In this document: positions 1 through 56,621 of the stretch, in pieces
Layout of the letters: every line of letters begins with the position of its first letter
Numbering within the stretch: the first letter of the stretch is position 1
IMG/VR virus record: IMGVR_UViG_3300008108_000033
Location: 1-64,000 of that record
DNA length: 64,000 nucleotides
From: a virus
Reading direction: 5' to 3' (one strand)
Made by a program: the position numbers and the translations under genes
Notes under the pieces: generated by a model
The model's input: only the letters and a program-made list of their open reading frames with translations
Database searches by the model: none
Told to the model about the DNA's origin: nothing

Positions 1-214
1 AGTTTTTAACTACAAAGTCTTTATAAGCAGAAGCGTCTTTAGCTTGTCCTAGGTATTTGTTGAATCTAGGATCTTTTAGTGATGCCAATAAAACTCTTGA
101 CTTGCCCATGGATGAAGGGTCATTGGCGGCGTCTTCTAGATCTTTCGCGGCTCTCAAGACTTCGTCTTTAGAGACTTCTGACAAGAAGTAATTTTTAAAT
201 GAAAGTTTATCCAT
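1..214 (-). CDS. Hypothetical protein, partial (runs off window start); CTS-like N-terminus MDKLSFKNYFLSE
   Basis: Hand-translated open frame from ATG 214 to the edge; ATAAATA box and purine-rich leader upstream. Confidence 0.7.
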   Translation of the reverse strand, partial: MDKLSFKNYFLSEVSKDEVLRAAKDLEDAANDPSSMGKSRVLLASLKDPRFNKYLGQAKDASAYKDFVVKN

Positions 215-236
215 GTAATTCTCTCTGGAATATTTA

Positions 237-500
237 TCAGTTTTCTTCTACTTTTTTGAGCAATGTGTAGTAATTTGGTTTTTCTCTCAGGTGTGCAACC
301 GCTATTTTAAGAGCATCTGACTTGCGCTTTACAACATCGGTATCTTTATCTTTGTCATGTTCAGTTTCAACGTTAACGCCTTTTACCAGCTGATGTTTTT
401 TGAATTTAGAAATATCAATTCCTGTATCTTTGGCCATTTTCAATACATCTTGAAAATCCAATTTTGATTCTTTTAAAAGCCAGTCGGTGAAAGAAAGCAT
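237..500 (-). CDS. DUF5661-like protein, putative internal head protein
   Basis: GVNVETEH...KIAVAHLREKPNYYTLL resembles DUF5661; N-terminus MLSFTDWLLKE. Confidence 0.7.
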   Translation of the reverse strand: MLSFTDWLLKESKLDFQDVLKMAKDTGIDISKFKKHQLVKGVNVETEHDKDKDTDVVKRKSDALKIAVAHLREKPNYYTLLKKVEEN

Positions 501-504
501 GAAT

Positions 505-516
505 TATTTATAAATA
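505..516. promoter_or_regulatory. Palindromic bidirectional T4-like late promoter (TATTTATAAATA)
   Basis: TATAAATA on both strands, each 4 nt before an ATG (500- and 521+). Confidence 0.7.
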
Positions 517-520
517 TGAT

Positions 521-919
521 ATGGAATTCTTGCAATGGTTTTTTGAAAACGATGAAATGCCCGTAGACCTTCCTGCGGAACTGCAAGAGTTCGTTTATGA
601 AATGGCTCCTTATGGCCATGCTATAAGGTTTAGTTTTCCTGCGAATAAGAAACGAGCGCCGGGACAATTTGTAATGACTGGCAAGGATATAGTGCAGTTA
701 TTACAGAAGTTTTATAATGATGCCAAGGCAGTTTTGAGGAATCCGCGCTTGGACGTTCAATACAGAGAACAGCTTTACGATTACATAAAGCATTATCAAG
801 AAATGTTTAACGATTTCTTTTCTGACAGGTTGAATTTGGAAAAGTCATTTGTGGTACACACCAGTCCGCCGGGAAGTAGATTTGCCGAGCAATCAAATAA
901 GATGTCTCCAATTACTTGA
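521..919 (+). CDS. Hypothetical protein, CTS-like N-terminus MEFLQWFFE
   Basis: 132-aa ORF directly after TATAAATA. Confidence 0.75.
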   Translation: MEFLQWFFENDEMPVDLPAELQEFVYEMAPYGHAIRFSFPANKKRAPGQFVMTGKDIVQLLQKFYNDAKAVLRNPRLDVQYREQLYDYIKHYQEMFNDFFSDRLNLEKSFVVHTSPPGSRFAEQSNKMSPIT

Positions 920-1141
920 TTTCTTTTTTAAAGTTAAGATTCCGCAGCAAGTAGTATTATTGAATGCAGTTGAGAAAACTGATCGACGGCGCGTTACAAA
1001 CATAGATGACCAGCTAGTTGGGCTCATCATAGGAGTGTTATTGATAAATGGGGCATTGAATATTCCTCTGATTCCCAAAGAAAAGCTTTGGGAATTTTTG
1101 AAAAGTCTCACGTCGCTGAATGTGCTTGTTCTAATAATCAT
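893..1141 (-). CDS. Small basic Ser/Thr-rich hypothetical protein
   Basis: Perfect SD AGGAGG 5 nt before ATG and a sigma70-like promoter upstream. Confidence 0.55.
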   Translation of the reverse strand: MIIRTSTFSDVRLFKNSQSFSLGIRGIFNAPFINNTPMMSPTSWSSMFVTRRRSVFSTAFNNTTCCGILTLKKKSSNWRHLI

Positions 1142-1156
1142 TTTTGCCTCCTAGCT

Positions 1157-1184
1157 ACTTTAGGATGCAATTTTATCTGGTCAA
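1157..1184 (-). promoter_or_regulatory. Sigma70-like (early) promoter TTGACC-N16-TAAAGT
   Basis: Consensus match immediately upstream of AGGAGG/ATG 1141. Confidence 0.45.
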
Positions 1185-1185
1185 G

Positions 1186-1473
1186 TTAAACTCTGCCAGC
1201 ATCTTCGATTCTTTTTATTATTTTAGCAGGCTTAGCAGGTTTAAGGGGAGGGAGGCCCGGTTTAAGTTTTTGTTCTGGCTCATCGTGTACAGGAACCGAA
1301 GAGAACATTTGATCAAGCATGCCTTTTTTTGCTAATTCAGCAGTTCCTAGTGCTCCCGCGCCAGCTAGTGATGCGCCAATTGTTAGAGGGAACTTTCTGA
1401 CAATCATTTTGGTTTTATCCAAGATATTTTCATTTTTTTGCTGAATGAAATCTTTAAACTTGTAGCTTTTCAT
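1186..1473 (-). CDS. Hypothetical protein, CTS-like N-terminus MKSYKFKDFIQQKNE
   Basis: Start moved from TTG 1494 to ATG 1473, which lies 5 nt after TATATA (1479-1484). Confidence 0.7.
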   Translation of the reverse strand: MKSYKFKDFIQQKNENILDKTKMIVRKFPLTIGASLAGAGALGTAELAKKGMLDQMFSSVPVHDEPEQKLKPGLPPLKPAKPAKIIKRIEDAGRV

Positions 1474-1533
1474 AAAATTATATATTGTTTGCAAGTTTAT
1501 ATATTTCGTGCGTAATAGTAATGGAGGTGAATC

Positions 1534-2292: not shown

Positions 2293-2302
2293 AAATTTAT
2301 TC

Positions 2303-2330
2303 TTGACTTTTTGAACCCCTGTCCTACTGT
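2303..2330 (+). promoter_or_regulatory. Sigma70-like (early) promoter TTGACT-N16-TACTGT
   Basis: Consensus match upstream of the small membrane-protein cluster. Confidence 0.45.
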
Positions 2331-2354
2331 TGATAGCAAGAAGTGGGGGTCATT

Positions 2355-3146: not shown

Positions 3147-3410
3147 ATGGAAGCTTTTGTTGTATTCGTATGGAATTGTGCTTTGTTCACTGGAGCGATT
3201 TTATTCATAGCTTTTGTAATATTTTGTGTTTCGGCAATGGTTTCAGGATTTATGATGAAGCCAGATGTCAAAATAGGACGGGTTGATTCTACAGCTAAAG
3301 CAGTTACGTCCGAAGAAGTGACGGTCACAAAAAGAAAGAGGGCGAAAGAATTCGCCCCCATTCGTAAACTTAATGAAAATCAGGCCGGTCTGAAAATATT
3401 CAGTAATTAG
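3147..3410 (+). CDS. Small membrane protein, C-terminal AGLKIFSN
   Basis: N-terminal hydrophobic segment; SD AAGGAG. Confidence 0.75.
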   Translation: MEAFVVFVWNCALFTGAILFIAFVIFCVSAMVSGFMMKPDVKIGRVDSTAKAVTSEEVTVTKRKRAKEFAPIRKLNENQAGLKIFSN

Positions 3411-4108
3411 ATTCCGCCAGCGTCCTTGATTCGGCCCATCATTTTAGGTGCCATGCCGTATATCCCTTTATCCATAGCTCCAGCTGGCGACTCTAGTCCG
3501 GGCAATCTTCCTCCATATACAGGGGTGGATTTTGCCTGTGCTTTGCCATATTTCATCTGCGCTCCCAAATTGGCGCTAACAGATTGTAGAATTCTTGCTA
3601 TTTCCTTGTCTTCCTCTTGTGTCTGCACAAGCATGTCTTTCATTTCTTTGCCAACTTTATTCAGATGGCCCATTTTATTGTTTAGATATTTACTTACGGC
3701 CCTATTGATTGTAGAAATTGCCGACATGTCTTGTGGATCCATCATAGACTTTCCACCAATTTCAAGATTCTTCATAGCTTCTTCTAATTTTTGTCTTTCG
3801 ACCTTAACTTCTGCGACGGCTTCCTTTGTATTTTTATAGCCATCAACCATAGATTGCCTTACGGCTGTTGTTACATTTTTCATTTTAGATTCAAGATTTG
3901 CTACAATACTGGCTATTTTTGAACGTGTAGCTCGAATGTCGAAATCTCTTTTTACGTCTTTTCCTTTTTGTTTAAGTCCTTGCCATGCGTCACTAGCAAG
4001 TCCTCCTGCAGTTTGAAATCCAGCTTTTATCTGGTCCCAAATGCCTTCATCGAGTGTTTCGTTTTCAGAACGAGCTTCAACGTAGTCATTAAATGATATA
4101 CGATTCAT
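3407..4108 (-). CDS. Helical coiled-coil hypothetical protein, CTS-like N-terminus MNRISFNDYVE
   Basis: 233-aa ORF; SD GGAG; TATATA upstream. Confidence 0.8.
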   Translation of the reverse strand: MNRISFNDYVEARSENETLDEGIWDQIKAGFQTAGGLASDAWQGLKQKGKDVKRDFDIRATRSKIASIVANLESKMKNVTTAVRQSMVDGYKNTKEAVAEVKVERQKLEEAMKNLEIGGKSMMDPQDMSAISTINRAVSKYLNNKMGHLNKVGKEMKDMLVQTQEEDKEIARILQSVSANLGAQMKYGKAQAKSTPVYGGRLPGLESPAGAMDKGIYGMAPKMMGRIKDAGGI

Positions 4109-4204: not shown

Positions 4205-4612
4205 ATGGAAAAGTTTCACAAGCACTTGATTTTGAATGCGGTAGTTAAAAACCCAATTATGACTGAAGAAGATTGTAATTGTTGGCTAGCCGAGTTGGTA
4301 AACGTTATCGACATGGATATTTTGATACCCCCGCATTCCAAGTATTGTGATATTGAAGGCAACGAAGGTGTGACTGGAACGTGCGTGATTACCACAAGTC
4401 ATGTGAGCATTCATATTTGGTCTAATGTTGAGAAGCCATACATCCGAATGGATGTTTATAGCTGCAAGGATTTTGACGTGCAGAAGGTAATGGATTACGT
4501 CAACGATACTATGGGTGTAGAAGAGGAAGGTCACATAGTGATAGACAGGAACAAGATCGGACCTAAACTTGTTTGCTGTTCTGATCATAAATGTCAGGCA
4601 GCAGGGGTTTAA
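4205..4612 (+). CDS. speD: S-adenosylmethionine decarboxylase-family pyruvoyl proenzyme
   Basis: HLILNA...GVTGTCVITTSHVSIHIW...RMDVYSCKDFD matches class 1b SpeD. Confidence 0.85.
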   Translation: MEKFHKHLILNAVVKNPIMTEEDCNCWLAELVNVIDMDILIPPHSKYCDIEGNEGVTGTCVITTSHVSIHIWSNVEKPYIRMDVYSCKDFDVQKVMDYVNDTMGVEEEGHIVIDRNKIGPKLVCCSDHKCQAAGV

Positions 4613-5084
4613 TTTTCTTTAAAATTTCCCTAACTTTTGCGTTATCGATGTCTTGGTCTGCAAGAGAAGTTATGTAAAAATATATTGTCGAAACGGCCTT
4701 TAGAGCGCCAAGTATTATTGCTTGTTTGCTGGCTGGCATAGATGATATTACTGGCATTATTGTTGGGAATAGCATTAGAGGATTTGCCAAAGTTAGTTTG
4801 CTGCTTTTTGCTACAGATTTGGCAAGTTTAGCCCAATATTTAGATTTTTTAGGATGTCTGAGTACATCTTTCAGATCGTAAGCAACTTCGATATTAGATT
4901 TTAAAGTTGGTTTAACCATTAAAATCATTTTGCTCGCGCCGATAAGGAAATCTGCTAATTTAACAATTTTCTTGTAATCGGCAACGTCTGATACGGCATC
5001 AAGCGGGGAAGGCCCTTCCAAATCTTGACCTATATGATACGCATAATCAGCGTATGATTCTATAAAATGCTTAAACCCTTGCAT
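4563..5084 (-). CDS. Hypothetical protein, CTS-like N-terminus MQGFKHFIE
   Basis: 173-aa ORF; TATATA (5089-5094) 4 nt before ATG. Confidence 0.75.
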   Translation of the reverse strand: MQGFKHFIESYADYAYHIGQDLEGPSPLDAVSDVADYKKIVKLADFLIGASKMILMVKPTLKSNIEVAYDLKDVLRHPKKSKYWAKLAKSVAKSSKLTLANPLMLFPTIMPVISSMPASKQAIILGALKAVSTIYFYITSLADQDIDNAKVREILKKIKPLLPDIYDQNSKQV

Positions 5085-6087: not shown

Positions 6088-6780
6088 ATGTATATCGAGA
6101 AATTGAAATTCGGCAAATGGTTAGCCGAGTTTAACTTGGGAACACTTGAAACTGAGCTTGTAGATAGCAAGCCGATTGAGTCCTTATATGCTAAAGCTAA
6201 AAATGCAGTGGATTTGGTCAGAAAATACGATCAAGCAGAGGGTGAGCATAATTGGTTGAAAAAGCGAGTTGGGTGGCAAGGGCCAAGAAATGATTTTGGT
6301 TACTTGTTAAACATAAGCACAATAGCACCTCTGGCTGGCACAATATACGGACTTTTTAATAGCAAAGAAAATCAAAGAGTACTCGACAGAGATGTTCGCA
6401 AGTATCCTGTAACATTCAAATCTAATAGGCCTTTGACTGGAGAAGAGAAGCATCAGGAAGATGTTTTAAAAAACATAGCATTTAATGTTATGAAAAAGCA
6501 ATATCCAGATATAGACCCTAATAAAATACATGATAGTGCAGTTATCCACGTAAATGTTCCTCATATAATCAACACTATGAAACAGCGCGGACTAACAGGA
6601 GAGGAACTTGAACGGGCTATAATAAAAGAAATAGCAAGCACTATAGTTCATGAATCTACACATCAACTTGAAAGAACATGGATGGGTACAACCGACGAGA
6701 GTGGTCCGAGAGAAGCTGAAAAGCGCTTCTTGAATTGGCTAGAAAGAAACCCTGCTTTAATCATGGCGGCGGCGAAATGA
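6088..6780 (+). CDS. Putative zinc metallopeptidase (HExxH) with CTS-like N-terminus
   Basis: TIVHESTHQLE plus downstream Glu; KFGKWLAE; TATATA 5 nt before ATG. Confidence 0.65.
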   Translation: MYIEKLKFGKWLAEFNLGTLETELVDSKPIESLYAKAKNAVDLVRKYDQAEGEHNWLKKRVGWQGPRNDFGYLLNISTIAPLAGTIYGLFNSKENQRVLDRDVRKYPVTFKSNRPLTGEEKHQEDVLKNIAFNVMKKQYPDIDPNKIHDSAVIHVNVPHIINTMKQRGLTGEELERAIIKEIASTIVHESTHQLERTWMGTTDESGPREAEKRFLNWLERNPALIMAAAK

Positions 6781-7768: not shown

Positions 7769-8032
7769 ATGGATAAGCCTTACGTCGAGACTGGCAATGG
7801 TAATGTTGTAGTAAGGGAGTTTAGCCCGGATGTGCCCTTTGAAGACTTAAAGTGGCACAGAGACTACGAAGATAGGAAAGTTCGTGTTTTAGAGCCGAAT
7901 GATTGGCAATATCAAGAAGACAACAAACTCCCTGTGCCTCTGGTCGGGGAGTTATTCATTCCCAGAGGTCTTTGGCATAGAGTTATAAAAGGAACTACCA
8001 AATTAAAAGTTGAGATTACAAAAATTATTTAA
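7769..8032 (+). CDS. Cupin-fold protein
   Basis: WHRDYEDR...FIPRGLWHRVIKG; start MDKPY at 7769. Confidence 0.7.
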   Translation: MDKPYVETGNGNVVVREFSPDVPFEDLKWHRDYEDRKVRVLEPNDWQYQEDNKLPVPLVGELFIPRGLWHRVIKGTTKLKVEITKII

Positions 8033-9082
8033 ATATTCAACTATTTTATCGGCTGCCTTGCCATCTCCATAAGGGTTTTTGTCTAGTGGAAGTTTCATAG
8101 AGCTATAAAGTTTGCTATCATTCCAAAGTTTATTAAATGTAGAACAAATAAGAGTTACGTCTGTACCAACTAATTTCCCTGCGCCCAAAGTTATAACTTC
8201 ATTTCTCTCAGTGGTATTTCTAAGAACCAAAACTGGCTTTTGAAGCGTTACACATTCTTCTTGTATTCCTCCCGAATCAGTAATTACCAGCCAAGACTGA
8301 TTTATTTTCTCAAGCATTTCACCGTAGTCAAGCGGCTCGCACAATGTTATGTTTTTAGATACTATTTCCTGATTTATTGTTTTTTTAAGCTCTGGATTAG
8401 GATGCACTGGAAATATAATCTCGATTTCGGCGTGACTCTCGCCTATCATGTTCAAAGACTTGCAAATATTTTTAATTCCTTCTCCCCAATTTTCTCTCCT
8501 ATGTGCTGTAACGATAACCGTTCTCTTTTTATGTTGCGTCAAGTTAGAAAACTTGGATTTTGCATACAAAGTTGAGTCAACTATAGTGTTGCCAGTAACC
8601 AAGATTTTGTTTGCTGGTATTCCTTCCTTGATGAGGTTATTTTTGGCTACTTCAGTTGGAGCAAAATTCATGCATGTCAATCTTGCAATTAATTCTCTGT
8701 TTTTTTCTTCCGGAAACGGTTCTTCTTGGTAAGTTCTCAGTCCAGATTCTACATGGAAGACATTCTTTTTGTTGTAGTACGCAAACAGTGCGGCACAAAG
8801 AGCGGTAGTTGTATCTCCATGCACTATTATGTTTTTAGAGGATTTGAAAATAGCCGACTCGTCAAATTTTGCCAAGATTGAACTTGTTAATTCGGACAGG
8901 CTGTTAGATTTTCTATCTAATCTCAAAAATTCGTCTGGTGTAATATCAAAAAAGCGGTATGTATCACTATTGTGTTGGCCGGAATGTATCCAACAAGGTT
9001 TCAGATCCTTATTCTTAAGTTCAAAATACACCGGAGCCAGTTTGATAATTTCCGGTCTGGTCCCGGCAACTATTGTGAACAT
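8003..9082 (-). CDS. wecB: UDP-N-acetylglucosamine 2-epimerase (non-hydrolysing)
   Basis: GTRPEIIK, GQH, HGDTTT, HVESGLR, PFPEE, HRREN, TDSGGIQEE, NPYGDG. Confidence 0.95.
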   Translation of the reverse strand: MFTIVAGTRPEIIKLAPVYFELKNKDLKPCWIHSGQHNSDTYRFFDITPDEFLRLDRKSNSLSELTSSILAKFDESAIFKSSKNIIVHGDTTTALCAALFAYYNKKNVFHVESGLRTYQEEPFPEEKNRELIARLTCMNFAPTEVAKNNLIKEGIPANKILVTGNTIVDSTLYAKSKFSNLTQHKKRTVIVTAHRRENWGEGIKNICKSLNMIGESHAEIEIIFPVHPNPELKKTINQEIVSKNITLCEPLDYGEMLEKINQSWLVITDSGGIQEECVTLQKPVLVLRNTTERNEVITLGAGKLVGTDVTLICSTFNKLWNDSKLYSSMKLPLDKNPYGDGKAADKIVEYLNNFCNLNF

Positions 9083-11642: not shown

Positions 11643-12950
11643 TTAAACCATGTTTTTATCAATTACTTGATGAAAAGCATTCGGCGATCCGAGCAAATCT
11701 AAAAATTGTCTAATAATGTTTTTGCCCATGTTAATAGGTTTGCTGAAAAGGTCATCTATTACGTGCTGGTTTTTATTGCCAGACCTTACTAATCTTCCAA
11801 GTCTCAACAAGAATTGTACGTTTTCAGCATCCAAATGTGAAAAGCCAAGTGTCTTCAAAACTTTTTCTACTTCGAATGGGTCGTTGCCCATAAGTGTCAT
11901 GGCTGTGGCTATGATTCTATTATTAGGAACTTTGGTACAGTCTACTTTATCACACATGTCATGAAATTCCATGCGCGGGAATATTTTGCCCAATAACTTA
12001 GCTTTTTTGAGGTTATTTATATATTTTGCAACTGGAACCTCTGGATTTTCAATTGCAGCCACGAACATTTTTTTCAGTATTTTGTCGTCATAGTCGTCGT
12101 GTTGGAATTCCAAAATTTCATCCAATAAATCTTTGCTTAAGTTGCCATTTTTGGCAAATCTGGCTGATACGCTGCAAAGGTTGAATGGCAAGTATGGATT
12201 TCTGCCGAACGCAAGTTGTGGCTTCCTAATAAGTTGCACAATACCTGATTTCAAGTCGTGCATTCCACCTTGTGGATCTATTAGCTCTCCGTTTTCACCA
12301 TCAGCATCTTTCAATTTCAAATACATGGCATTAATAGTAATGTCGCGGGTTGCCGCATCTTGAACGATACTGGTAGTGAACTTTGCCTTGAGTGGAACTA
12401 ATCCTCTATATTTTTCGTGTATGCAAAATGGAGAAATGTAAAGTTTCTGTCCATCTACTACTGCGGTGACTTCTATTTCTATACCAGATTTATCCCATCT
12501 GCTTGCATAAAAATAGTTTTTATTACCAGCGCTTTCTGGTAAATCTTTGTATTTGCCTAATAACTCAAGGTCATGTGTTTTCGGCTTGACTTCTTTGAAA
12601 TGTGCCGGTGAATCTTTGAGTATTTTTTTTGTTTCATCCGGCGAGGCATCTGTTACTAGGTCGTAGTGATGAAAAGGTTGATTTGCTAAATGATCTCTTA
12701 AACTTGCCCCACATAAATAAATCGTTTTCTTTTTCATAGTAGGCTGGACTACGCCTTTGTTTTTTTCAATCGTTGTATATCCAAGGGGTACTTCTGCGGA
12801 ATTTTCAAATGCTTCTATAACTTTTTGTAGTGCTGGATGGGATTTTGCAGAGACCAACAATGGCCCGAATTCGCCATCAGCGTCTCTTTCTTTAAGCCTA
12901 AATTTGGCTATCATAGGGAAATTTTTATCGTCCATTCTTTTATCCACCAA
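11643..12950 (-). CDS. CCA-adding enzyme/poly(A) polymerase-family protein with degenerate active site
   Basis: LCGASLRDHL...HYDLVTDASP, RDITINAMY, IDPQGGMHDL. Confidence 0.85.
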   Translation of the reverse strand: MVDKRMDDKNFPMIAKFRLKERDADGEFGPLLVSAKSHPALQKVIEAFENSAEVPLGYTTIEKNKGVVQPTMKKKTIYLCGASLRDHLANQPFHHYDLVTDASPDETKKILKDSPAHFKEVKPKTHDLELLGKYKDLPESAGNKNYFYASRWDKSGIEIEVTAVVDGQKLYISPFCIHEKYRGLVPLKAKFTTSIVQDAATRDITINAMYLKLKDADGENGELIDPQGGMHDLKSGIVQLIRKPQLAFGRNPYLPFNLCSVSARFAKNGNLSKDLLDEILEFQHDDYDDKILKKMFVAAIENPEVPVAKYINNLKKAKLLGKIFPRMEFHDMCDKVDCTKVPNNRIIATAMTLMGNDPFEVEKVLKTLGFSHLDAENVQFLLRLGRLVRSGNKNQHVIDDLFSKPINMGKNIIRQFLDLLGSPNAFHQVIDKNMV

Positions 12951-13487: not shown

Positions 13488-13919
13488 ATGAGTAAAAAAC
13501 CAGTTATACCTGTTCCGGAGATGAACGTAGCTGTTCCTGCGCCCGGGCATTTGACAAGCATCACCGACCAAGACCTTCAGTCAATATACTCTGAAATTTT
13601 GGACGATTTAAGGAGTGATAGGCGGGAAATAGATATTCTACTGAATAATTTCGTTGAAATGGTAATGAACGAGGGCGATGGAAGCAGTTCTTCCAAGGAA
13701 GCAGTAGTTAATTTAGTAAAGATTAAAAACGATGTGGCCGACAAGAAAGCCAAAATAGCGGATTTGATGACCAGCTTGGTTATAAAAGAAAAAAATATCA
13801 ACAAATTGACAGCTAATCAGACTAATCACATACATATTACTGACAAGAGAGCAATTCTTGAGTCCCTTAAAAAAGCAAAAAAGGTGGAAAATGACAAGCA
13901 ATTGGGCGACAATAAATGA
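13488..13919 (+). CDS. Hypothetical helical protein
   Basis: 143-aa ORF heading the + strand block. Confidence 0.8.
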   Translation: MSKKPVIPVPEMNVAVPAPGHLTSITDQDLQSIYSEILDDLRSDRREIDILLNNFVEMVMNEGDGSSSSKEAVVNLVKIKNDVADKKAKIADLMTSLVIKEKNINKLTANQTNHIHITDKRAILESLKKAKKVENDKQLGDNK

Positions 13920-15231
13920 TTGGCTAGTTAAGGAAGATAATGGTGGCGTTGATGTATTGGCGTCCGCACTAGATGGATCAGCTGGAGGCGGTTCAGGCAT
14001 GCCTCCTCAAGATGCTCAGAATCCGGGTCGCGACGGCGCTGGCGCTCCTAGTCCGCCCCTAGAGAAAAACAATCTTGGCAATCCTATGGAAAAGCCAGTG
14101 GAACCGGGTGGAACCGGACCACAAATGGCAGAACCTATTGCGCCTGATATGCCAGAAAAAGAAGAAGTTAAAGACGCAAATTTTGAAATGTGGAAGTCGA
14201 AGTTCTTCAAAGACAGCGTTAAAGGCGACGTTAATCAACTTCTAGAATCATGCATGAGTATCAGAAGCAAGGATTTAGATACCTATCCCCGAAAATTTAT
14301 TGAGGACAATATTCAGATACTTTTCTTGCGCCAAAACGCAAATATAGACAAGGCTTCACAGGCAATACGCAAGTTTATTAGAGAAAACTTAGATCACAAC
14401 AATCCGGCAAGCAGCTTAATACAGGGAACTGTAAGTACAATTCAGCCCATGCCCGAATTGTGCAATATTTTTATCAAGATGATTGGGCTGTATAGCAATA
14501 AATCGGATATGCACAGAAAATACGTTGCTTCATTATTGGGAGCAGTACAAGTTGGCTCTGGTGGTTCTAACGAAGATTTGATTTTTAACCAAAGAGAATA
14601 CAGCATAAGAATTTCTACAAGAATGAATTCCAAGTTTGGCATGCTTGACTTGGGTAAATGGTACATGGACGCGAATGATCCAGAAAAATACTTGTCTGAG
14701 TCTGAAATGGACATGATGGAGAATGGCAGCCCAGAAGAAAAGTCTGTTTTACGCAAAAGAGTTATCCTAGAAAGTATCGCCGATAACTTTAGAATGCGTT
14801 CTTTCTTTATGAACGTAGTCGAACTAAACGGAACTAATTATTTCATTGGCGCTGATTTTGCAAATGCATTGAGAGATGGTTATACAGAGGGAAAACTAGT
14901 AGTTAAAAATTTGGTTAATGATTTTTCCGAAAGCTTTTTTGACAGCGAAGGAAATATGGTAACTCTGCCCGACATAAAGATTATGTATAACACGAATACT
15001 GGCAAAATTAACAACGAGGGAGAGCCAATAATGATCGAAAACGAGTTTATTACTCGTAGGGATGGCATGTTGTTCCTGACTGCTAGTTTAGAAGTATTAA
15101 AAGAGGCCGCAACATCATTTCAGGGTCTTATTGTAAAGGAAATACCTTTTGTGGGCAATCCGACCGATATAAACACTTTGATTCATTGTGTTCCTTCGGC
15201 CCCAGAGATTCTTCTAAGAAATTGTGCATAA
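13891..15231 (+). CDS. Hypothetical, probably virion-associated protein
   Basis: ATG 13891 after AAGGTGG; Pro/Gly-rich N-terminus, INDWLVKE. Confidence 0.8.
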   Translation: MTSNWATINDWLVKEDNGGVDVLASALDGSAGGGSGMPPQDAQNPGRDGAGAPSPPLEKNNLGNPMEKPVEPGGTGPQMAEPIAPDMPEKEEVKDANFEMWKSKFFKDSVKGDVNQLLESCMSIRSKDLDTYPRKFIEDNIQILFLRQNANIDKASQAIRKFIRENLDHNNPASSLIQGTVSTIQPMPELCNIFIKMIGLYSNKSDMHRKYVASLLGAVQVGSGGSNEDLIFNQREYSIRISTRMNSKFGMLDLGKWYMDANDPEKYLSESEMDMMENGSPEEKSVLRKRVILESIADNFRMRSFFMNVVELNGTNYFIGADFANALRDGYTEGKLVVKNLVNDFSESFFDSEGNMVTLPDIKIMYNTNTGKINNEGEPIMIENEFITRRDGMLFLTASLEVLKEAATSFQGLIVKEIPFVGNPTDINTLIHCVPSAPEILLRNCA

Positions 15232-15245: not shown

Positions 15246-15770
15246 ATGCAGACTTTCCTTGAATACGCGATTCATCGAGTAAAAACTTTTGAGCCAAAGA
15301 GATTGCACAATCTTTATTTGGCTCTCAAGAAAGGCGGTTTGGCTGTAATCAATAGAATTCACCAGCAAAACGACCCACATCTTTGGGTGCAAGCTCATCC
15401 GCAGCCGGAAGAATATAGAGGAGTAAGAGTTTACCTACTGGGAAACATTTGCGCCTTTAGAGTTCAGAAGCTTGAAAATACCGAACCATATGGAAAAGCA
15501 TATCTTCTTAATTTGCAAGAAATGTACGATGACATTTTAGAAAACATGGGCGAAAAAGAAGATGATAAAGATCCTTGCAAGGCTGTGGAAATTCTTATCA
15601 AACAAATGAGCGATACAATAAGGAAATTTTATATAGATTCAATTCAGGACGAAGAGGAATTCCTATCTGCTCAGCTAGACGGTCCTTCGCGACAAGATAT
15701 TGGCGGCGCAGCGTTACTACCAGTTTCTGGTATAGATTACTCAAGTACTGTTTACAGCACCAAGAACTAA
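15246..15770 (+). CDS. Hypothetical protein (MQTFLEY..)
   Basis: TAAATA (15236-15241) 4 nt before ATG. Confidence 0.8.
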   Translation: MQTFLEYAIHRVKTFEPKRLHNLYLALKKGGLAVINRIHQQNDPHLWVQAHPQPEEYRGVRVYLLGNICAFRVQKLENTEPYGKAYLLNLQEMYDDILENMGEKEDDKDPCKAVEILIKQMSDTIRKFYIDSIQDEEEFLSAQLDGPSRQDIGGAALLPVSGIDYSSTVYSTKN

Positions 15771-16297: not shown

Positions 16298-19200
16298 ATG
16301 GCAGTAGATTTAACAGGCAATGAATATCAAGGCAGTCTAGACGCTTTAAAAGCCGCTATGCTTGGCCTTACTAATACTGCCGAAAAAATAAATAAGATGG
16401 GCAATGGAAATTCTCCAAATTACAAGGCCATGTCAGATGAGTTGAAGAAATTTCCAGAATTCATAAAAGATTTTCAAAAAGTTGCAAACGAATTAAACGC
16501 TGCCGTCGATCAAATTACCAAAAATACAAAAAAAACTGGGGAGCCGAAGAAAACATGGGCTCAAAAAATATATGAGTGCCTTTGCAAAGAAGAAAATATA
16601 AAGAAAAGAAGCAAAGATGCTGCGCAACAAGTAGGCGAAGAATTAAAAAAAACCACATCAGGTGGTGGCGGAGGCGGAGGCGGTGGTAAGAAAAGAAGAT
16701 TTAGAGGTGGTGAAGATGATGATGATGATGATAAACCTTTGGTAGATGTTATAATAAACGGAGTTAAGGCTTTTTATAAAGGTGTAGAAAAAATACGCAA
16801 CAGTGCCGAGCAGGCATTTTTTGGGTTTGATGAAAAAGCAAACCTTATGTCGAAAACTTTTGGTGATTTATTTATAGCAGAGTCGCAATTCAATTTGAAA
16901 ATAAAAGAGACTGCTTTTGAAGTTGAAGGTATTACTGGCGACTTAATCGATATGCAAAAAGAGTATACTAATGTTGGCAAAAGTGTAGAAGAAACCGGAT
17001 TTAATAGAACAAAATACTTGAAAGAATATACGGAAAACTTCCAAAATGGAATACGAGACGCAAAGCAACTTCAAGTTTTAACTAAGCAAACTTTATCAAC
17101 TGAAAGACAACTAGGGCTTGAGGCTGGCAGCTTGGCGGCCGACTTTAGAGCCATGGCAATGTCGGCCAAACTGAATAATGCACAAACTGGCGCTATTGGA
17201 AGAGGAATGGTTGAAGTTGCAAGGAATACCGGGCTTACTTCTAAAAGTATGCAAGAGGCATACAACTTCAGCAAGCCTTTTGTAGAAAATCTTAAAAAAG
17301 CAGCAACTTACAGCAGCAGTTCTGCAACGAATATATTAGAAATAGCGGCTAACGCAAAAAAACTTGGAGTAGAAGAATCTATAACTCCGCTTTTAAATGC
17401 CGCCACTAGTTCAGTAGACTTAATCACAAAAAGCAGCAATGAAACCAAGGCTTTTCTATATAATGCAGCTGGCGCTGTAGGTAAAATACAGCAATTGCAA
17501 CTGGGCATACTAACAAGAAGCAAAAAAGGCATTAGAGAATTAGCTACTGGGATGGAGAAAGTGCTCCAAGGATTCGGAGTGCGCTCTATGGAGGAAATCG
17601 AAAACCTGCCTGATGAAGTTAAGTTTAGACTAAACTTGCAACTAAAGGGCGCGTTCGGAATGGAATTAGGGGAAGTTACAAGAACTATAGAAGCATTCAA
17701 GGAGGCTGGCAAGGGACTTTCAACCAGACTAGATGAACTAAACAATAAAAGAAACAAAGCTATTACCCTTGAACAAAAATTAGCAATAGAAGAAGAAGAG
17801 AGAAGACTTAAGACTTCCGGCACACTGGCTGTTCTTACGGGACTAAGTGAGGCCACCAAAGGTGCTAAAGACATGGATAAAGCGTTTAGCAACTTTACTC
17901 GAAGGCTGCCGGAATTTCAGGAAGATATCAAGGCTTTGGGCGGAGAAATTACTGACTCTCGGGGTGCGGCAAAGTTCTCTATTGAGGCAGCTGTAAAATC
18001 TCTTAATGATGGTCTTACTAAAATAGGAGAAAAGCCGCTTGAATTAAGCCAACTAGATATAGAAAAAGCCTTGAATGATAAAGACTCGTTCGCTGCTTTG
18101 ATGGATGTATTGAATACCGGGCAAAACAAATTGGCCATAGCCCAGAAAGCACAAACCGATCCGGCGCTAAAAACGTCTTTGGAATTGGAAAAATTAAATG
18201 ATAATTTGAGAAATGATGTAACAGCTCCGCTTTTAAATGTTCTAAAAGAACAACTTGGCATGCAGGGTTTTATGGAAGCTTCTCTTGCCTTCATAGCAGC
18301 GGAGATGACTTTTGGTCTCGCTGGTTTAATTGCTTCCAAAATGACTCCACTAGATGATTTGTCGAAAGCTATATTGGGTTTTAGTCCTAAAGATTGGCTT
18401 AAAGGAATTTTTTATGGCAAAGATGACAAGTCAAAAACAAAAAGTAAAAATTCTACTAGCGGCACACCCGAAATAAAATGTCCAGAAATGAATCTTGATT
18501 GGAAGAGTCTTGGAGGATTTCTTAAAAACGCCGCAATAGGAATCATAGGAATAACAGCATTTGTTGGAATGCTGGCTGCGGCTTTGGTAGCGCTTGGATA
18601 CATAGCTAAGGGAGTTTCTAAAGCAGGCATAGATCCAATAGAAGTGGCCAAGCAAGTATCTGGCATTATTTTGGCTGGCGTAATTATTCTCACTGAAGCC
18701 GGCATAGCCGGTGTGCTTTTGAAGAAAGCCATGGACAAATATGGCAAAGCCATAATGTCGCTGTGGTCTGTGGACACTCTTAAATTTGTTGGAATACTGA
18801 CTTTAATGGCAGTTACCCTCACAGCTCTTTCGGCGGGATTGCTGTATGTTGGCAAAGCTATTGCAGAATCTTCAGGCATGTCTGCGCAAGACGCTATAGA
18901 AACCGGAATCAGGATTGGTGCAATTATAACTGCTGGCACAATTATTTTGGGCGTCGTTGGCGCAGCAACTTTCGGCCTTGTCAAGGTCATACCGCCATTT
19001 GTTGCAGCTGTTAAGGCTTTAAGTTCAGTAGGTTGGCTCGGCGCAGGAATTGTTGCCGGTGCTTTAGTGGCGCTCCCAATCATAGCCGCCGGACTACTAT
19101 ATCTGTCAATTAAGCTGCTTCAATTTTGCGATACAGTGCTTAAATCCAATCCAATAGATACAGCGAGTTTGCAAGAGACCGCTAAAACTGTAGCATTTTT

Positions 19201-45255: not shown

Positions 45256-46135
45256 ACTTACTTTCAGAAATGTTAAAGCAGTCACTTCGGAAGGAGAGAC
45301 GGTTACTTTAACATTTAGAAAGCATCCGAATCAGAACGAATATTTAAAGTGTGAAAACTATTGGATAAGAAATTTTGCTGGCACCAATGTAAACCCAGTT
45401 GATGTAAACAAATTTTTTAGACAGGAAGAGGTTTCGTATCTTGTCGATAACGAGGTAAGAAATAGCAACCACAGATATCCAGTCTTGGAGCCAGAACTAT
45501 TTAATCGTTTCAAGGATGTATTAATTGTCGGAGACGGATTAGGTTTTGACCAACACAAGCTGTTTAAGATGGCTAGGCCGAATCTATGTTGCATAACAGT
45601 AAATTCAGCGGCACGGTTTTGGCAGGCGTCTTTGCCTATAGAATTTTTAATAGTAAATAATCCATCTTCTACGGCTATGAATGGATTGCCCATAAGAAAT
45701 CATCCCAAACTCATAGCAAACAGAAAAACTCATTATCCTTTCATAAAAAATTATAAAAACATAATATATCTTTATGATTCTGTAGCCGATGAAGAGTATC
45801 AAACATCTATGTCTAAGAATTCAGATCTGCATATTGACGATTATAGAAATCCAATCTGTGCAGCAATATCTTTGGCACACAAGTATTGCAAGGGCAATTT
45901 GTATCTAGCATTTTGTTCATCCGGGTATCCGGAAGAAAAAGACGGAGCTATTAAGGTAGATGAGAATTTTTATCAGTATCCGGCACAAAAAACAGCAGAC
46001 TCAATAGTTGATGGCAATTTATTTTGGTACAATTTTGCAAACAGAGATTCTAAAATATTTCATACAGGAATAAAAAATACTCTGAAATTTTCTAAATATC
46101 TTGATGTTAATGATTTTATTGAAAGTATTTTATGA
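45233..46135 (+). CDS. Maf/DUF115-like putative glycosyltransferase-related protein
   Basis: DVLIVGDGLG...CITVNSAA...FLIVNNP; AISLA...NLYL. Confidence 0.55.
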   Translation: MIKAQKDKLTFRNVKAVTSEGETVTLTFRKHPNQNEYLKCENYWIRNFAGTNVNPVDVNKFFRQEEVSYLVDNEVRNSNHRYPVLEPELFNRFKDVLIVGDGLGFDQHKLFKMARPNLCCITVNSAARFWQASLPIEFLIVNNPSSTAMNGLPIRNHPKLIANRKTHYPFIKNYKNIIYLYDSVADEEYQTSMSKNSDLHIDDYRNPICAAISLAHKYCKGNLYLAFCSSGYPEEKDGAIKVDENFYQYPAQKTADSIVDGNLFWYNFANRDSKIFHTGIKNTLKFSKYLDVNDFIESIL

Positions 46136-46431
46136 ACCGTAAAAAGTTTTTTTCTCCTAACTTTATGTCGGAGTTTAAGAAATGGATGCACGAAAATGAT
46201 GACTCAAAAGTCGTATTTTCCAAGGGTCAGCGCGTGCAAAGCAATTGCAAATTAAAACAGATTGTTGAAAAAATAGACTGTGTGGACACTGGCGACCACA
46301 CAGTCTTTGAAGTAAGTAAATACTTTTTGAAATACGGCGGTGTTGTAAAAGAATGCAACGGCGATCAAATAACGATTAAAAACAAAAAGGGAACTTTTGT
46401 TTTAAATCAATCTGATATTGTTGCAAGCTAA
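46132..46431 (+). CDS. Hypothetical protein (SEFKKWMHE motif)
   Basis: ATGA coupling. Confidence 0.7.
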   Translation: MNRKKFFSPNFMSEFKKWMHENDDSKVVFSKGQRVQSNCKLKQIVEKIDCVDTGDHTVFEVSKYFLKYGGVVKECNGDQITIKNKKGTFVLNQSDIVAS

Positions 46432-50317: not shown

Positions 50318-50557
50318 ATGGCCATACTTATTGATCCTAACAATGTGAAAGTGATTAGTCAAAATGGACAAGTCACATTAGCCCTCCAGATTGAATTAAA
50401 TATCAATCTGAATGGAAATATCACTGCGCAGGAACAATCTTCTAGCTCTAACAATTTTAAAGCTTCTTCTTCGCCAATCAAAAATGCGGCAGATGAAGAA
50501 GCTGCTTGGCTAGTACCAGATTTTAACTCCAAAGAAAAGGTAAAATTTGGGAAATGA
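50318..50557 (+). CDS. Small hypothetical protein
   Basis: 79-aa ORF upstream of the actin-like gene. Confidence 0.7.
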   Translation: MAILIDPNNVKVISQNGQVTLALQIELNINLNGNITAQEQSSSSNNFKASSSPIKNAADEEAAWLVPDFNSKEKVKFGK

Positions 50558-50604
50558 GAGGATCATACGGTAATAACAGTACAAAAAAAGAGAGAGGCAA
50601 AACT

Positions 50605-51618
50605 ATGGCAGTTTCAGTTGACGTAGGTACTTATACTTTAGTCTCTTGCAAAAGAGATGCAGATAAGAACTTTGTATTCAAAAAGGAAATCAACGCCTTT
50701 CTTGAATTACCATTAGAGAATAGATTTGTTTTCAATATGATGAAACAGGCCGGTGTGCCACTAATTGAACGTGAAAAACTAGCATACGCTCTCGGTGAAG
50801 CTGCAGTGAACATGGCGTATACTCTTCCTACTCTAGAGCTCAAAAGGCCCATGAAGGATGGTTGCGTCAATCCCAAAGAAAAAGACGCTTTTCAAATTAT
50901 GTCTATCATGCTTCACTCTTTGATAGACCCAATTTCAAGAGATGGCGAAACACTTTACTACTGCGTACCGGCTAATGCAATAAATCAGGAAACTGACGCG
51001 GATTATCATCAAAAGGTTGTTGAATCCATTTTCCGAAGCTATCAATCCGACGAAGGATATAGGGTCAATCCCAAACCAATTAATGAAGCTTTGGCTTTGG
51101 TATATGCCGAGTTGCAGAACAAGATGTTCACTGGAGTTGGTATTAGTTGCGGGGGCGGCATGGTAAACGTTTGCTACGCTATGTATGGCAACCCAATTTT
51201 TCAATTCGCAATAGTGAATAGCGGAGATTGGATCGATAAACAGGCAGCCAAAGCTACCGGCGAATCACCAACTTTTATAAACAAAGAAAAAATGAAAGTG
51301 GATTTAACAAAAGATCCTAAAACTTTAGTCGAAAGAGCAATCATTACGCAATACCGCCTAATGATAGAAAAAACAATTACCGGAATTAGAGACGGACTTG
51401 CGTCCGCAAAACAGTCCGTTAAATCAGAACACCCAGTTGACTTTGTGGTCGCTGGTGGAACAAGCATGGCCACTGGGTTCGTTGAGATTTTCACTGAAAC
51501 TTTGAAACAGGCCAACTTGAGCATCCCAGTGGGAGACGTAATCAGACCTGCAGAGCCGCTTTATAGCGTTGCAAAAGGGTGTCTGATTGCGGCTGAAGCA
51601 GCGGACGCAGGAACGTAA
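50605..51618 (+). CDS. Actin-like ATPase (MreB/ParM/FtsA superfamily)
   Basis: VDVGT, NEALA, SCGGGMVN, VVAGGTS, VAKG; start MAVSV after AGAGG. Confidence 0.85.
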   Translation: MAVSVDVGTYTLVSCKRDADKNFVFKKEINAFLELPLENRFVFNMMKQAGVPLIEREKLAYALGEAAVNMAYTLPTLELKRPMKDGCVNPKEKDAFQIMSIMLHSLIDPISRDGETLYYCVPANAINQETDADYHQKVVESIFRSYQSDEGYRVNPKPINEALALVYAELQNKMFTGVGISCGGGMVNVCYAMYGNPIFQFAIVNSGDWIDKQAAKATGESPTFINKEKMKVDLTKDPKTLVERAIITQYRLMIEKTITGIRDGLASAKQSVKSEHPVDFVVAGGTSMATGFVEIFTETLKQANLSIPVGDVIRPAEPLYSVAKGCLIAAEAADAGT

Positions 51619-54383: not shown

Positions 54384-54404
54384 GATATGTCCCTATAATA
54401 ATAC

Positions 54405-55172
54405 ATGCACATCGAACATCTTAGCGTTAGTCGCAGCGGTTGCTTTGACCAATGCAAACAACAGTACAAATTCAGATATCACCTAAAAGTGGTTCCGAAT
54501 CGACCTGAGCAATTATATTTTACTTACGGCAAGCTTGTCCATACAGCTGCTGAAATTTTTGTCGAGTCAAAGGGCCAAAAGCCAATACGAGAAATTGTAA
54601 GTGACTTGCTGCAAGGGAGAATTGAATTTGACGGCAGCGATAATGTCTGCCGCTTAGACGAATCATATTTCAAAAAACTTTATGAACATATTGGCTTTAT
54701 CGAAAGATTTACGCAAAAAGTCGGATTTGATGGAGAGATAGAACATGAAATCAAGTACGATCTGGACCCACCTAACAACAAAATATTTTTAGGATACATC
54801 GATAGACTTATAGTAAGAGATAATCAGGCAATAATTATTGATTACAAAACATCAAAAAATAATAAATGGAGAAAAAATAAAGTTTCAATAAAAAAAGATT
54901 TACAACTAAACGCCTACGCGCTGTATGTACATGAAAAATTCAACATCGCCCCAGAAAATATTCAAGCTGCTTTGGTTTACTTGGAAGAACCACAGGTAGT
55001 AAGCACAAATTTCAATAAACAAGGGTTGCAATTGACGAAACAAATACTTAAAAATAGTTATTATGCAATCGAGGAGTTCGATGCTTCCAAAGTCAAAGGA
55101 AACGTCGGATATCATTGCAAGAGGTGCGACTATTCAGATCAGTGCCCGTTTTTTGATGACAGCATGTTTTAG
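54405..55172 (+). CDS. PD-(D/E)xK RecB/Cas4-like nuclease
   Basis: LSVS...C, GKLVH, GYIDRL, IIDYKT, QLNAYA, CKRCDYSDQC. Confidence 0.9.
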   Translation: MHIEHLSVSRSGCFDQCKQQYKFRYHLKVVPNRPEQLYFTYGKLVHTAAEIFVESKGQKPIREIVSDLLQGRIEFDGSDNVCRLDESYFKKLYEHIGFIERFTQKVGFDGEIEHEIKYDLDPPNNKIFLGYIDRLIVRDNQAIIIDYKTSKNNKWRKNKVSIKKDLQLNAYALYVHEKFNIAPENIQAALVYLEEPQVVSTNFNKQGLQLTKQILKNSYYAIEEFDASKVKGNVGYHCKRCDYSDQCPFFDDSMF

Positions 55173-55179
55173 GTGACAC

Positions 55180-55659
55180 ATGTTAAGTAAATACAAGTTT
55201 TTCATTTACAACCATCTTATTTTCTTGAATGAAAATCAAAGGTACGATTTATTTGCATGTGTCCCAGTAACTGCCATGGGCGTAATGATGAAAGCCCAAA
55301 TTAGCCCAAGAGATTTTGAAGCTCAAAGCATTCAAGAGATTTTTTGCGATTACATTATCGATTGTAATGCTGCAGAAAATGCCATAGAAACGCGCAAAAA
55401 TAAGGTTTTAATCCATCTTCCCAATCAATCAAGCATGGATGACTTTCCAATGCCTTTTCAGCCGAAAAACTTGGAAAAATATGATTTGTACGACCTCCTT
55501 AACAGAAGTGAGGGAGGTCGCGAAGAACTTTTCTATGAAACTATAAGCGAAGATTACGACAGAAGAATTAAATCATTTCATAAAGTTGAAATTAAAGACG
55601 AAAAAAGCTTTTACGAAAGTATGGAATTCGTAAAATTTAACATGTCCCAAGTGACATAG
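55180..55659 (+). CDS. Hypothetical protein
   Basis: 159-aa ORF; SD AGGTG. Confidence 0.75.
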   Translation: MLSKYKFFIYNHLIFLNENQRYDLFACVPVTAMGVMMKAQISPRDFEAQSIQEIFCDYIIDCNAAENAIETRKNKVLIHLPNQSSMDDFPMPFQPKNLEKYDLYDLLNRSEGGREELFYETISEDYDRRIKSFHKVEIKDEKSFYESMEFVKFNMSQVT

Positions 55660-56143
55660 CAAATTTCATACTTACAACTGCTCCCGGGCTCACAGTTAAA
55701 GTTGTACCGAATGATAATGTTGAAATCAATACGCCAGAATAACCTGTGCCAACATTGCATAAAAACATATCTGTTGCTGTGTAGCTGGTGCCGGTAGCAG
55801 TAAATGATACAGTACTACTTCTTATTTTTGGCGGTGTTACTTCTGGTACGAATTCAAAATTAGTATTTTTTACTAAAGGTTGCCTAAGATATCCATTTCC
55901 CGAGGGCTCGCCAGATATATCAGCCATGGTTTGCGCGGCAGTTATGGTCGTTCTGCTGTCTAAACCAACGTAATACTCATTAGGAACACTTGTATTTTTA
56001 AACATGCAACTCAAAAACAACGTTTGACCGCCGACGTTGAAAACATTTTTTAAATTTTTGTCTTCATACAAAATTTTGCCAGTTGCTTGCTCGTATACTT
56101 TCAATTCTTCCAAAATAAGCAACCCGTTCCAAGGATTTGACAT
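55637..56143 (-). CDS. Putative tail-associated structural protein
   Basis: YYVGL...EPSGNGYLRQ...VSFTATG; CTAAATA and AAAGG upstream. Confidence 0.65.
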   Translation of the reverse strand: MSNPWNGLLILEELKVYEQATGKILYEDKNLKNVFNVGGQTLFLSCMFKNTSVPNEYYVGLDSRTTITAAQTMADISGEPSGNGYLRQPLVKNTNFEFVPEVTPPKIRSSTVSFTATGTSYTATDMFLCNVGTGYSGVLISTLSFGTTLTVSPGAVVSMKFAMSLGTC

Positions 56144-56189
56144 AATATGCCTTTCTAATATTATTTAGTTGCTTTTACATATATATTTC

Positions 56190-56621
56190 ATGCAATTCAA
56201 AGAATGGCTTCAACAAAATGAGACAGCTGGAGATAGTTGGTTCGATCCAACAGCACAGCCAATACAATGGCTTTTGCGCGCTCAAATAAATGGTGCGCCA
56301 CTACCGGGGGTCATTGATTTGGCAGATTTTCCTCCGGGAAGTATTAAAAATCCATATTTAAATGATTTACTTGCTAAATTAGCACGGTACGCCAAAAAAA
56401 AGGGAAATTACAGCCCAGATAAAATTAATTACAGATATAAAAATGAATCGGCAATACAACAAAAGTTATTGAAATATTATTTAAAGTTTAAACCCAAAAC
56501 GCCAAGACCTCCTGAATTTAAAGACGGCCCTGACACGTATACCAATGCTGGCTGGGATGCCGTTGGAGAACCGGATACGGGTCAGAGGGCCACCTTTAAA
56601 GTCCTACCTCACTACACTTAA
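56190..56621 (+). CDS. Hypothetical protein, CTS-like N-terminus MQFKEWLQQNE
   Basis: TATATA-TTTC-ATG, identical to the context at 5084. Confidence 0.8.
   Translation: MQFKEWLQQNETAGDSWFDPTAQPIQWLLRAQINGAPLPGVIDLADFPPGSIKNPYLNDLLAKLARYAKKKGNYSPDKINYRYKNESAIQQKLLKYYLKFKPKTPRPPEFKDGPDTYTNAGWDAVGEPDTGQRATFKVLPHYT

Follow-up and report, generated by a model that had tools for sequence, protein, structure and literature searches.

What is the purpose of a short N-terminal pattern that recurs on otherwise unrelated proteins of an uncultured virus? This question was raised by IMG/VR record IMGVR_UViG_3300008108_000033, a single linear viral contig of 80,753 bp, the first 64 kb of which (positions 1 to 64,000) are referred to here as the window. 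In a preliminary description of the window, eleven N-termini had been listed, and about ten of the proteins were proposed to carry a capsid-targeting-like tag that loads them into the phage head. In phage T4, the internal proteins IPII and IPIII, as well as IPI and Alt, carry a capsid targeting sequence (CTS), which is removed by the prohead protease gp21. The T4 CTS reads MKTYQEFIAE, and the T4 internal proteins are highly basic (PMC8442874). Suppressor analysis in T4 assigned residues 4 and 7 to targeting and residues 8 and 10 to processing, and gp21 cleaves after L/I-x-E (PMC9026906). Our analysis suggests that the tag of the present phage is likely a T4-type CTS, a propeptide of approximately 9–21 residues, in a distant new lineage. 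This reading is based on the enrichment of the motif at N-termini, its T4 register, the accompanying head genes, and the finding that the tag is conserved throughout the clade although its cargo turns over fast.

The tag motif was defined as aromatic-x-x-aromatic-hydrophobic-x(0-4)-Glu within the first 20 residues and was searched for in our own gene set (n = 88). All eleven listed N-termini were read as they had been given. The motif was present in 9 of the 88 predicted proteins, compared with chance expectations of 0.59 for random internal 20-residue windows and 0.74 for shuffled N-termini with their composition kept. None of 5000 shuffles reached nine matches, and the highest count was five, confirming the claimed over-representation at N-termini. 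One of the nine proteins (66978-; genes are designated by start position and strand) lies beyond the window and represents an out-of-sample match, and an ATG-anchored scan yielded a tenth, 73589-, which is also beyond the window. In all ten tagged proteins, the first aromatic residue was located at residues 3–8 and the Glu at residues 9–15 (residue 21 for 4108-). The exact T4 register, with aromatics at residues 4 and 7, was found in 500-, 5084-, and 66978-, and the same i/i+3 pair was shifted by −1 to +4 positions in the others (Table 1).

The origin of the contig was then considered. CheckV completeness was 16% for the contig and 18% for a 92-kb sister contig (G001) with a 99% identical capsid protein. 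Because these estimates of 16–18% apply to contigs of 81–92 kb, the complete genome is probably ~500 kb in size. Relatives with 79–87% identical capsid proteins were represented by contigs of 181 to 533 kb, and the nearest GenBank record, LR756511, is a 595-kb uncultured phage with a capsid identity of 74%. The identity of the major capsid protein (MCP) to those of cultured T4-like phages was 30–35% at most. The contig is thus a fragment of a phage, probably of ~500 kb, that branches deeply within the T4 superfamily.

A T4-only pattern was fixed beforehand (M, two free positions, aromatic, two free, aromatic, [LIVM], one free, E) and applied to 80 related loci and the present genome. It matched 30 ATG-anchored open reading frames (ORFs), compared with 1.2 expected, and its frequency at N-termini was 36-fold above the rate at internal positions. 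When run as a DNA pattern, it gave 21 matches in five large relatives versus 1 in the reversed control, and 12 matches in LR756511 versus 2 in the control. The same DNA pattern recovered ipII and ipIII in T4, together with gp61.1. In cyanophage S-SSM4, 2 strict matches versus 1 in the control were found, one of them on a cytidyltransferase, providing no evidence for the tag in that phage. The clade consensus was M-K-[STK]-F-x-[ED]-[WY]-L-x-E; its first aromatic was most commonly found at residue 4 (69 of 149 cases), and it agreed with T4 even at positions that the search pattern had left free. As side observations in T4, gp61.1 (54 aa, NC_000866 18966-19130) has a strict CTS-like start with three residues different from the ipII/ipIII tag, and a match at 114210, considered as gp67, was rejected, as the annotation places it inside uvsW, which does not encode a head protein.

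A T4-type head module was identified beyond the window, comprising a gp20 portal (3.6e-73), a 620-aa protein, a gp21-like protease, an acidic 301-aa protein, and a gp23 MCP (Pfam, 2e-86). The protease matched Pfam Peptidase_S77 (2.4e-28) and the PHROG head maturation protease (4.6e-51). It aligned to T4 gp21 (5JBL, E=6e-16) with His and Ser opposite Ala of the PDB chain, and we take these Ala positions to be mutated catalytic residues. The acidic 301-aa protein, encoded between the protease and the MCP, contains 15 [LI]xE sites and is a candidate gp22-like scaffold. Conserved Leu-Asn-Glu and [IM]-Asn-Glu sites were found in the MCP propeptide at residues 10 and 48, respectively, ahead of the gp23 domain, and a conserved Leu-Asn-Glu was found near residue 21 of the protease. 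Together with a conserved Leu-x-Glu-Ala in the 620-aa protein (see below), these hydrophobic-x-Glu sites fit a gp21-like specificity, and the respective proteins may be cleaved there. The shared register and the presence of both a protease of the gp21 family and head genes of the gp22/gp23 type on one contig supported the earlier assignment of the tag to the T4 capsid-targeting type. In the gap between the portal and protease genes, the 620-aa protein has an N-terminus that is conserved across 55 relatives, with an aromatic pair three apart, Ile/Leu-Glu, and then Leu-x-Glu-Ala near residue 28; no family match was obtained for this protein, which may carry a variant tag and reside, as a large protein, inside the head. 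An intein (Pfam Intein_splicing, 4.7e-15) is inserted in the portal gene ahead of the gp20 domain.

The conservation of the tag was compared with that of the proteins bearing it. In the family of 66978-, a gene divergent to the 620-aa head gene, M-[KQ]-x-F-x-x-[YF]-[LIV] was found in 43 nonredundant relatives, and beyond the tag the members varied from 77 to 258 aa and soon became unalignable. The identity of this gene was 62%, 45%, and 51% where that of the MCP was 99%, 99%, and 96%. In the syntenic 1–8 kb region of the sister contig, the tagged orthologues were 88, 71, 70, 63, 47, and 29% identical, and the aromatic pair was retained in all of them. The tag was also retained down to 46% identity in the DUF5661 family and 32% in the family of the 230-aa HExxH protein. 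The tags thus persist on proteins that evolve fast and have a patchy distribution.

The following sequence of events would account for these data. The two aromatics, three residues apart, would dock the protein onto the scaffolding core during prohead assembly, and the gp21-family prohead protease of the phage would then cut at the hydrophobic-x-Glu site. The mature proteins, which are small and mostly basic, would remain in the DNA-filled head and would most likely exit together with the DNA when a host is infected. Most of the tagged genes appear to be small stand-alone late units with a TATAAATA-like box 4–5 nt before the ATG; with the box in this position, the protein would be made during head building. 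All of these steps, from docking and cleavage to a location in the virion and injection, as well as an anti-defense role, are inferred from the gene sequences.

Several observations weigh against a T4-type CTS. The offset of the tag from Met is variable, the first aromatic falling anywhere between residues 3 and 8. A strict [LI]-x-Glu was present in only 6 of 10 tags, including the Leu-Asp-Glu at residue 21 of 4108-, Phe-x-Glu was present in 2 of 10, and neither type of site was found in the remaining 2 (1473- and 56190+). Moreover, the Glu was lost in one orthologue of the sister contig, and in another a conserved Leu-Asp-Glu was located ten residues downstream instead. The Glu that had been taken as the end of the tag is thus not always kept in orthologues. 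The relaxed motif is also unspecific, as dmd, gene 38, e.8, and 61.1 of T4 match it as well; the six matching annotated starts of T4 comprise two known CTS proteins, two that are clearly non-head (dmd and gene 38), and two others, and ~1% of the T4 ATG-anchored ORFs match. Because the motif is loose and matches T4 dmd and gene 38, one or two of the ten tagged members could be chance matches. The tagged proteins of relatives include proteins with flavin mononucleotide (FMN)-reductase, P-loop kinase-like (AAA_33), and NIF-phosphatase domains. These enzymes may be cargo, or they could equally reflect another use of the tag. The statement that enzymes lack the tag thus held in the window and failed in the relatives. 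Finally, the contig covers ~16% of the genome, so that other partners of the tag could lie elsewhere, and the phage is uncultured and known only as a metagenomic contig.

Table 1. Positions of the tagged and candidate genes, the divergent promoter boxes, and other genes mentioned in the text. Residues are numbered from the start Met; positions refer to the window unless marked as genome positions.
Name	Position	Strand	Product or element	Remarks
214-	2..214	-	Tagged ORF, at least 71 aa	First aromatic at residue 6; tag ends with Leu-x-Glu at 13; cut by contig end
500-	237..500	-	Tagged DUF5661 protein, 87 aa	F4, W7, L8; Leu-x-Glu ending at 11
Boxes	505..516	one per strand	Two overlapping TATAAATA boxes	In the 20-nt gap (501-520) between 500- and 521+; each 4 nt from ATG
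521+	521..919	+	Tagged protein, 132 aa	F3, W6, F7, Glu9
1473-	1186..1473	-	Tagged protein, 95 aa	F6, F9-I10; no Leu/Ile-x-Glu; start is the ATG at 1473
4108-	3407..4108	-	Tagged helical basic protein, 233 aa	F6, Y9
5084-	4563..5084	-	Tagged basic protein, 173 aa	F4, F7, I8, Glu9; TATATA box ends 4 nt before ATG
6088+	6088..6780	+	Tagged protein with HExxH, 230 aa	F8, W11, L12, Glu14
56190+	56190..56621	+	Tagged basic protein, 143 aa	F3, W6, L7, Glu11; box 4 nt before ATG
66978-	genome 66978	-	Tagged protein between portal and 620-aa gene	F4, Y7, L8, E10
73589-	genome 73589	-	Tagged HExxH protein, 160 aa	Promoter box 4 nt before ATG
15246+	15246..15770	+	Possible tagged protein, 174 aa	F4, Y7; no hydrophobic-x-Glu
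13891+	13891..15231	+	Acidic 446-aa protein, uncertain variant tag	Asn-Asp-Trp-Leu-x-x-Glu kept in two orthologues
46132+	46132..46431	+	99-aa ORF, uncertain case	Strict T4-register tag from internal Met (46165)
558-aa protein	56999..58675	-	Thermolysin-like HExxH protein	Rejected; orthologues in five relatives have unrelated N-termini
Portal	genome 64064-66598		gp20 portal with intein	
620-aa protein	genome 67127-68989		Protein in portal-protease gap	
Protease	genome 69004-69675		gp21-like protease	
Epimerase	8003-9082	-	UDP-GlcNAc 2-epimerase	
Polymerase-domain protein	11643-12950	-	Protein with poly(A)/CCA-polymerase head domain	
2597-aa protein	16298-24091		2597-aa ORF	
Volactin	50554-51618		Volactin match	

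The tagged genes were characterized individually. Because the record is a linear fragment, 214- is cut by the contig end, and its reading as an ORF wrapping round a circular genome was withdrawn; it is preceded by a GATAAATA box and then a 16-nt leader with a weak Shine–Dalgarno site, and its mature isoelectric point (pI) is 9.3. The product of 500- matched Pfam DUF5661 (E=7e-14) with the domain beginning past the tag, and TATAAATA is located 4 nt before its ATG. Ten homologues of this protein, down to 46% identity, retain a tag-like N-terminus. The sister-contig orthologue of 521+ is 47% identical, and its tag residues differ while the tag pattern is retained. The protein of 1473- (pI 9.9; box 5 nt before the ATG) has a Gly/Ala-rich hydrophobic stretch, and its orthologue in the sister contig, at 71% identity, retains the tag, as does that of 5084- at 70%. 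For 4108-, the orthologue is only 29% identical, with F6, Y9, and Leu-Asp-Glu retained and the first Glu lost, suggesting that the conserved Leu-Asp-Glu ending at residue 21 is the likelier cut site. As this gene has a Shine–Dalgarno leader, it is not leaderless. No relatives of its 233-aa product were found in a scan of IMG/VR. Among five relatives, an orthologue of 56190+ was found only in the sister contig, at 70% identity and with the tag and box spacing unchanged.

Two tagged proteins, of 230 and 160 aa, contain HExxH. For the 230-aa protein (6088+), 43 homologues were found, and in a 28-sequence alignment extending down to 32% identity, the tag Phe was present in at least 90% of the sequences and H188, E189, and H192 were invariant. 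Its AlphaFold2 model had a mean predicted local distance difference test (pLDDT) value of 69. In a wide structural search, the best neighbors were zincins and YbeY, with weak Z values of 5–6, and a Foldseek search of the model against the PDB gave no match at E<=0.001. This protein is a candidate small zincin-type metallohydrolase, with the zincin-like fold assigned tentatively because the structural neighbors are weak. The 160-aa protein (73589-) showed SprT-like matches below threshold, and its orthologue was absent from the 13 loci and 5 large relatives examined.

The weaker cases of the preliminary description fared differently. The case of 15246+ was strengthened because its orthologues keep the aromatic pair: those with 90%, 35%, and 32% identity retain Phe-x-Glu-[Tyr/Phe], and the two full-length ones begin with M-x-T-F. 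This protein may be targeted but uncut at the tag position. The membership of 13891+ and 46132+ in the tagged set is uncertain. The first motif position of 13891+ is a nonaromatic Ile/Leu, and neither a box nor a Shine–Dalgarno site was found before the internal Met of 46132+. For the 446-aa and 174-aa proteins of 13891+ and 15246+, no Pfam or PHROG family was found and nothing useful was obtained in PDB sequence searches. The 558-aa HExxH protein, which showed a Pfam Peptidase_M4 match below the cutoff, has a partial tag (F4, L8, and E10, without a second aromatic) in the present phage only; as the tag is absent from its orthologues, it was excluded from the set.

Next, the properties of the cargo were analyzed. 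The tagged proteins were 73–233 aa in length, with a median pI of 9.2 compared with 6.0 for the other proteins (p=8e-4), and 7 of the 10 had a pI above 9. Their mature parts were mutually unrelated in an all-against-all BLASTP comparison (every E>0.03), in agreement with the earlier statement that they are otherwise dissimilar. No PHROG family was found for any tagged protein, and the Pfam search gave only DUF5661 and subthreshold matches. The basic character of these proteins is also what would be expected if they were targeted to the head as structural components, that is, core, scaffold, or DNA-condensing parts of a very large capsid, rather than as injected effectors. The probable genome size of ~500 kb and the large internal protein masses held by SPN3US and phiKZ (PMC5694885) are in line with such a role, as is the fixed position of one tagged gene inside the head module of 43 relatives. 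However, the tagged set is patchy and its turnover is fast, as seen for 73589- (no orthologue) and 56190+ (1 of 5 relatives), which is unusual for essential structural parts; identities of 29–71% were observed where the MCP was 99% identical, and the cargo includes enzyme-like proteins. We therefore regard a purely structural role as unlikely, albeit worth serious consideration.

The N-terminus could also be a leader recognized by a noncapsid partner, such as a modifying enzyme of the kind acting on ribosomally synthesized and post-translationally modified peptides, a chaperone, or an import or secretion system. The fact that ~16% of the genome is in hand leaves room for such a partner, and enzymes of relatives bear the tag. 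Nevertheless, the tag agrees residue for residue with the mapped T4 CTS, its pattern recovers ipII and ipIII of T4, and it accompanies a T4-type protease, scaffold, and MCP module. The tag also lacks a hydrophobic core such as that of Sec or Tat signals, and no radical S-adenosylmethionine gene was found on the contig, a weak point given that the contig is 16% complete. These results render a noncapsid leader improbable.

The starts of tagged and untagged genes were compared. TA[AT]ATA was present within 40 nt upstream of 9 of 10 tagged genes versus 19 of 78 untagged genes (Fisher p=9.5e-5), and the end of the box was 3–7 nt before the ATG in 7 of 10 tagged versus 5 of 78 untagged genes (p=1.3e-5). 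The association between box and tag, which had been claimed for a late box, is real. The boxes shared by 500- and 521+ overlap and each lie 4 nt from an ATG, and leaderless or near-leaderless divergent transcripts are therefore implied. This divergent layout of tagged pairs recurs in relatives L015, L018, L055, L060, L062, and L080 and in LR756511. In the complete 533-kb relative G005 (52.7% GC, compared with ~39% here), the box, TA-N-ATA, was found 3–8 nt before the ATG in 65 ORFs. The tag was present on 28 of these 65 ORFs (0.6 expected) versus 37 of 6,833 others, giving an odds ratio of 139. Approximately 26 distinct genes of this relative have both box and tag, e.g., 347012 minus and 347048 plus; one product is HAD/NIF-type phosphatase-like.

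Such a strong link between box and tag (7 of 10 versus 5 of 78 here and the odds ratio in the relative) raises the question of whether the pattern simply reflects leaderless expression, in which case the first codons would be constrained as nucleic acid (DNA or RNA), either because they are transcribed first or because they signal leaderless translation. However, the two features can be separated. Tagged genes with a leader and a Shine–Dalgarno site (214-, 4108-, and the entire 66978- family) and untagged leaderless genes (13368-, 15792+, and 37 of 65 in G005) both occur. In addition, the codons vary synonymously, the offset from the ATG varies, and the amino-acid pattern is unchanged at 39% and 53% GC. 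This explanation is therefore very improbable. An origin of the pattern in chance or composition, AT-rich gene starts being rich in Phe, Tyr, Ile, Leu, Lys, and Glu, was rejected for the set as a whole and is exceedingly improbable, being possible for one or two members: the motif is loose, was defined after the fact, and matches ~1% of T4 ATG-anchored ORFs, but the composition-keeping shuffles gave 0.74 versus the 9 observed, the T4-fixed pattern was 36-fold enriched, the pattern holds at 53% GC, and the free positions agree with T4.

The proposed portable promoter–tag cassette was upheld only in part. No common DNA cassette was found at the gene starts, with identities of 0.35 upstream (background 0.30) and 0.38 in the first codons (background 0.33), and a recently copied cassette was not found among them. 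Because the gene starts are barely more alike than the background, the cassette holds only as a recurring arrangement. A broader and more tentative interpretation, which we consider somewhat doubtful, is that the late-promoter box, the ATG, and the CTS together constitute a general loading device in the huge-phage clade, serving 30–40 injected, fast-evolving proteins per genome that could be predicted from sequence. As part of the same doubtful interpretation, the set would include small zincin-type proteases and, in relatives, reductase-, kinase-, and phosphatase-like enzymes and would be far larger and more enzymatic than that of T4. According to the count in the 533-kb relative, ~40% of the genes with a box next to the ATG encode tagged proteins.

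Other genes of the window were also recorded. A T4-type large terminase is encoded within the window, and the baseplate genes include those for a gp25-like wedge and for a hub that has an OB domain of the gp5 type, as well as a weak P2-I-like match. A 2597-aa ORF is located upstream of the baseplate genes, and the Pfam search found no family for its product. As it follows three small genes, two of which encode tag-like N-termini, the 2597-aa protein could serve as a tape measure or be a giant protein inside the virion. Two minus-strand genes separate the tag cluster from the structural block; one encodes a UDP-GlcNAc 2-epimerase (Pfam 4.9e-89), and the product of the other has a poly(A)/CCA-polymerase head domain. 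Another product matched Pfam Volactin over its full length (1.3e-65). Volactin is an actin-fold family named after a haloarchaeal protein.

If the T4-type CTS reading is true, a ten-residue pattern would predict from sequence which proteins of an uncultured huge phage are carried in the head and probably delivered first. It would provide a shortlist of otherwise unannotated candidate early effectors, ten in the present phage, including the DUF5661 protein and the two small HExxH proteins. The functional residues of the T4 CTS would have kept their positions across a divergence at which capsid proteins are ~30–35% identical, and the pattern would be useful for protein-delivery engineering and for the annotation of metagenomic phages. 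Our literature search retrieved nothing on capsid targeting combined with huge phages, nor on DUF5661. The principle has been described for T-even phages (PMC3012670, PMC12373910, PMC9026906), and reviews of T4 have already suggested that T4-like phages can package a variety of proteins by means of the CTS (PMC9026906). Our reading would thus extend a known T4 principle to a new phage group and would not represent a new mechanism, with many more members and a promoter-abutting gene layout setting the new group apart from T4.

Compared with the T4 IPII/IPIII system, the present one is alike in its N-terminal tag of ~10 residues, with aromatics three apart (typically at 4 and 7) and, in most tags, hydrophobic-x-Glu, in its homologous gp21 protease, gp23 capsid protein, and gp22-like acidic scaffold candidate, in its small, basic, unrelated cargo, and in an upstream box that resembles the T4 late promoter. 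It differs in its aromatics, the first being Phe instead of Tyr and the second Trp or Tyr instead of Phe, in the variable offset from Met and distance to Glu, and in the number of members, with 10 in an 81-kb fragment and roughly 30–40 in the 533-kb relative versus a handful in T4. Furthermore, most genes here have a box 4–5 nt from the ATG and no leader, and the system is known from sequence alone. The ip loci of T-even phages are hypervariable, and their products inhibit GmrSD-type restriction enzymes. They share with the present genes the combination of nonhomologous genes with only a common leader, rapid turnover, and clustering (here at window 1–6.8 kb) (PMC3012670, PMC12373910), whereas no homology to Ip1-3 was found here, the cargo includes HExxH proteins and DUF5661, and further genes are dispersed at 56 kb, 67 kb, and 73.6 kb. 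In phiKZ-like jumbo phages, a gp21 homologue cuts many internal proteins after Glu (PMC5694885, PMC9026906). The phages phiKZ, 201phi2-1, and SPN3US resemble the present phage as large phages that load many internal proteins cut by a gp21-related protease, but the propeptides of their head and ejection proteins are mostly >100 residues long, have S/A-x-E sites, and have no common short tag, whereas the tag described here is of the short T4 type.

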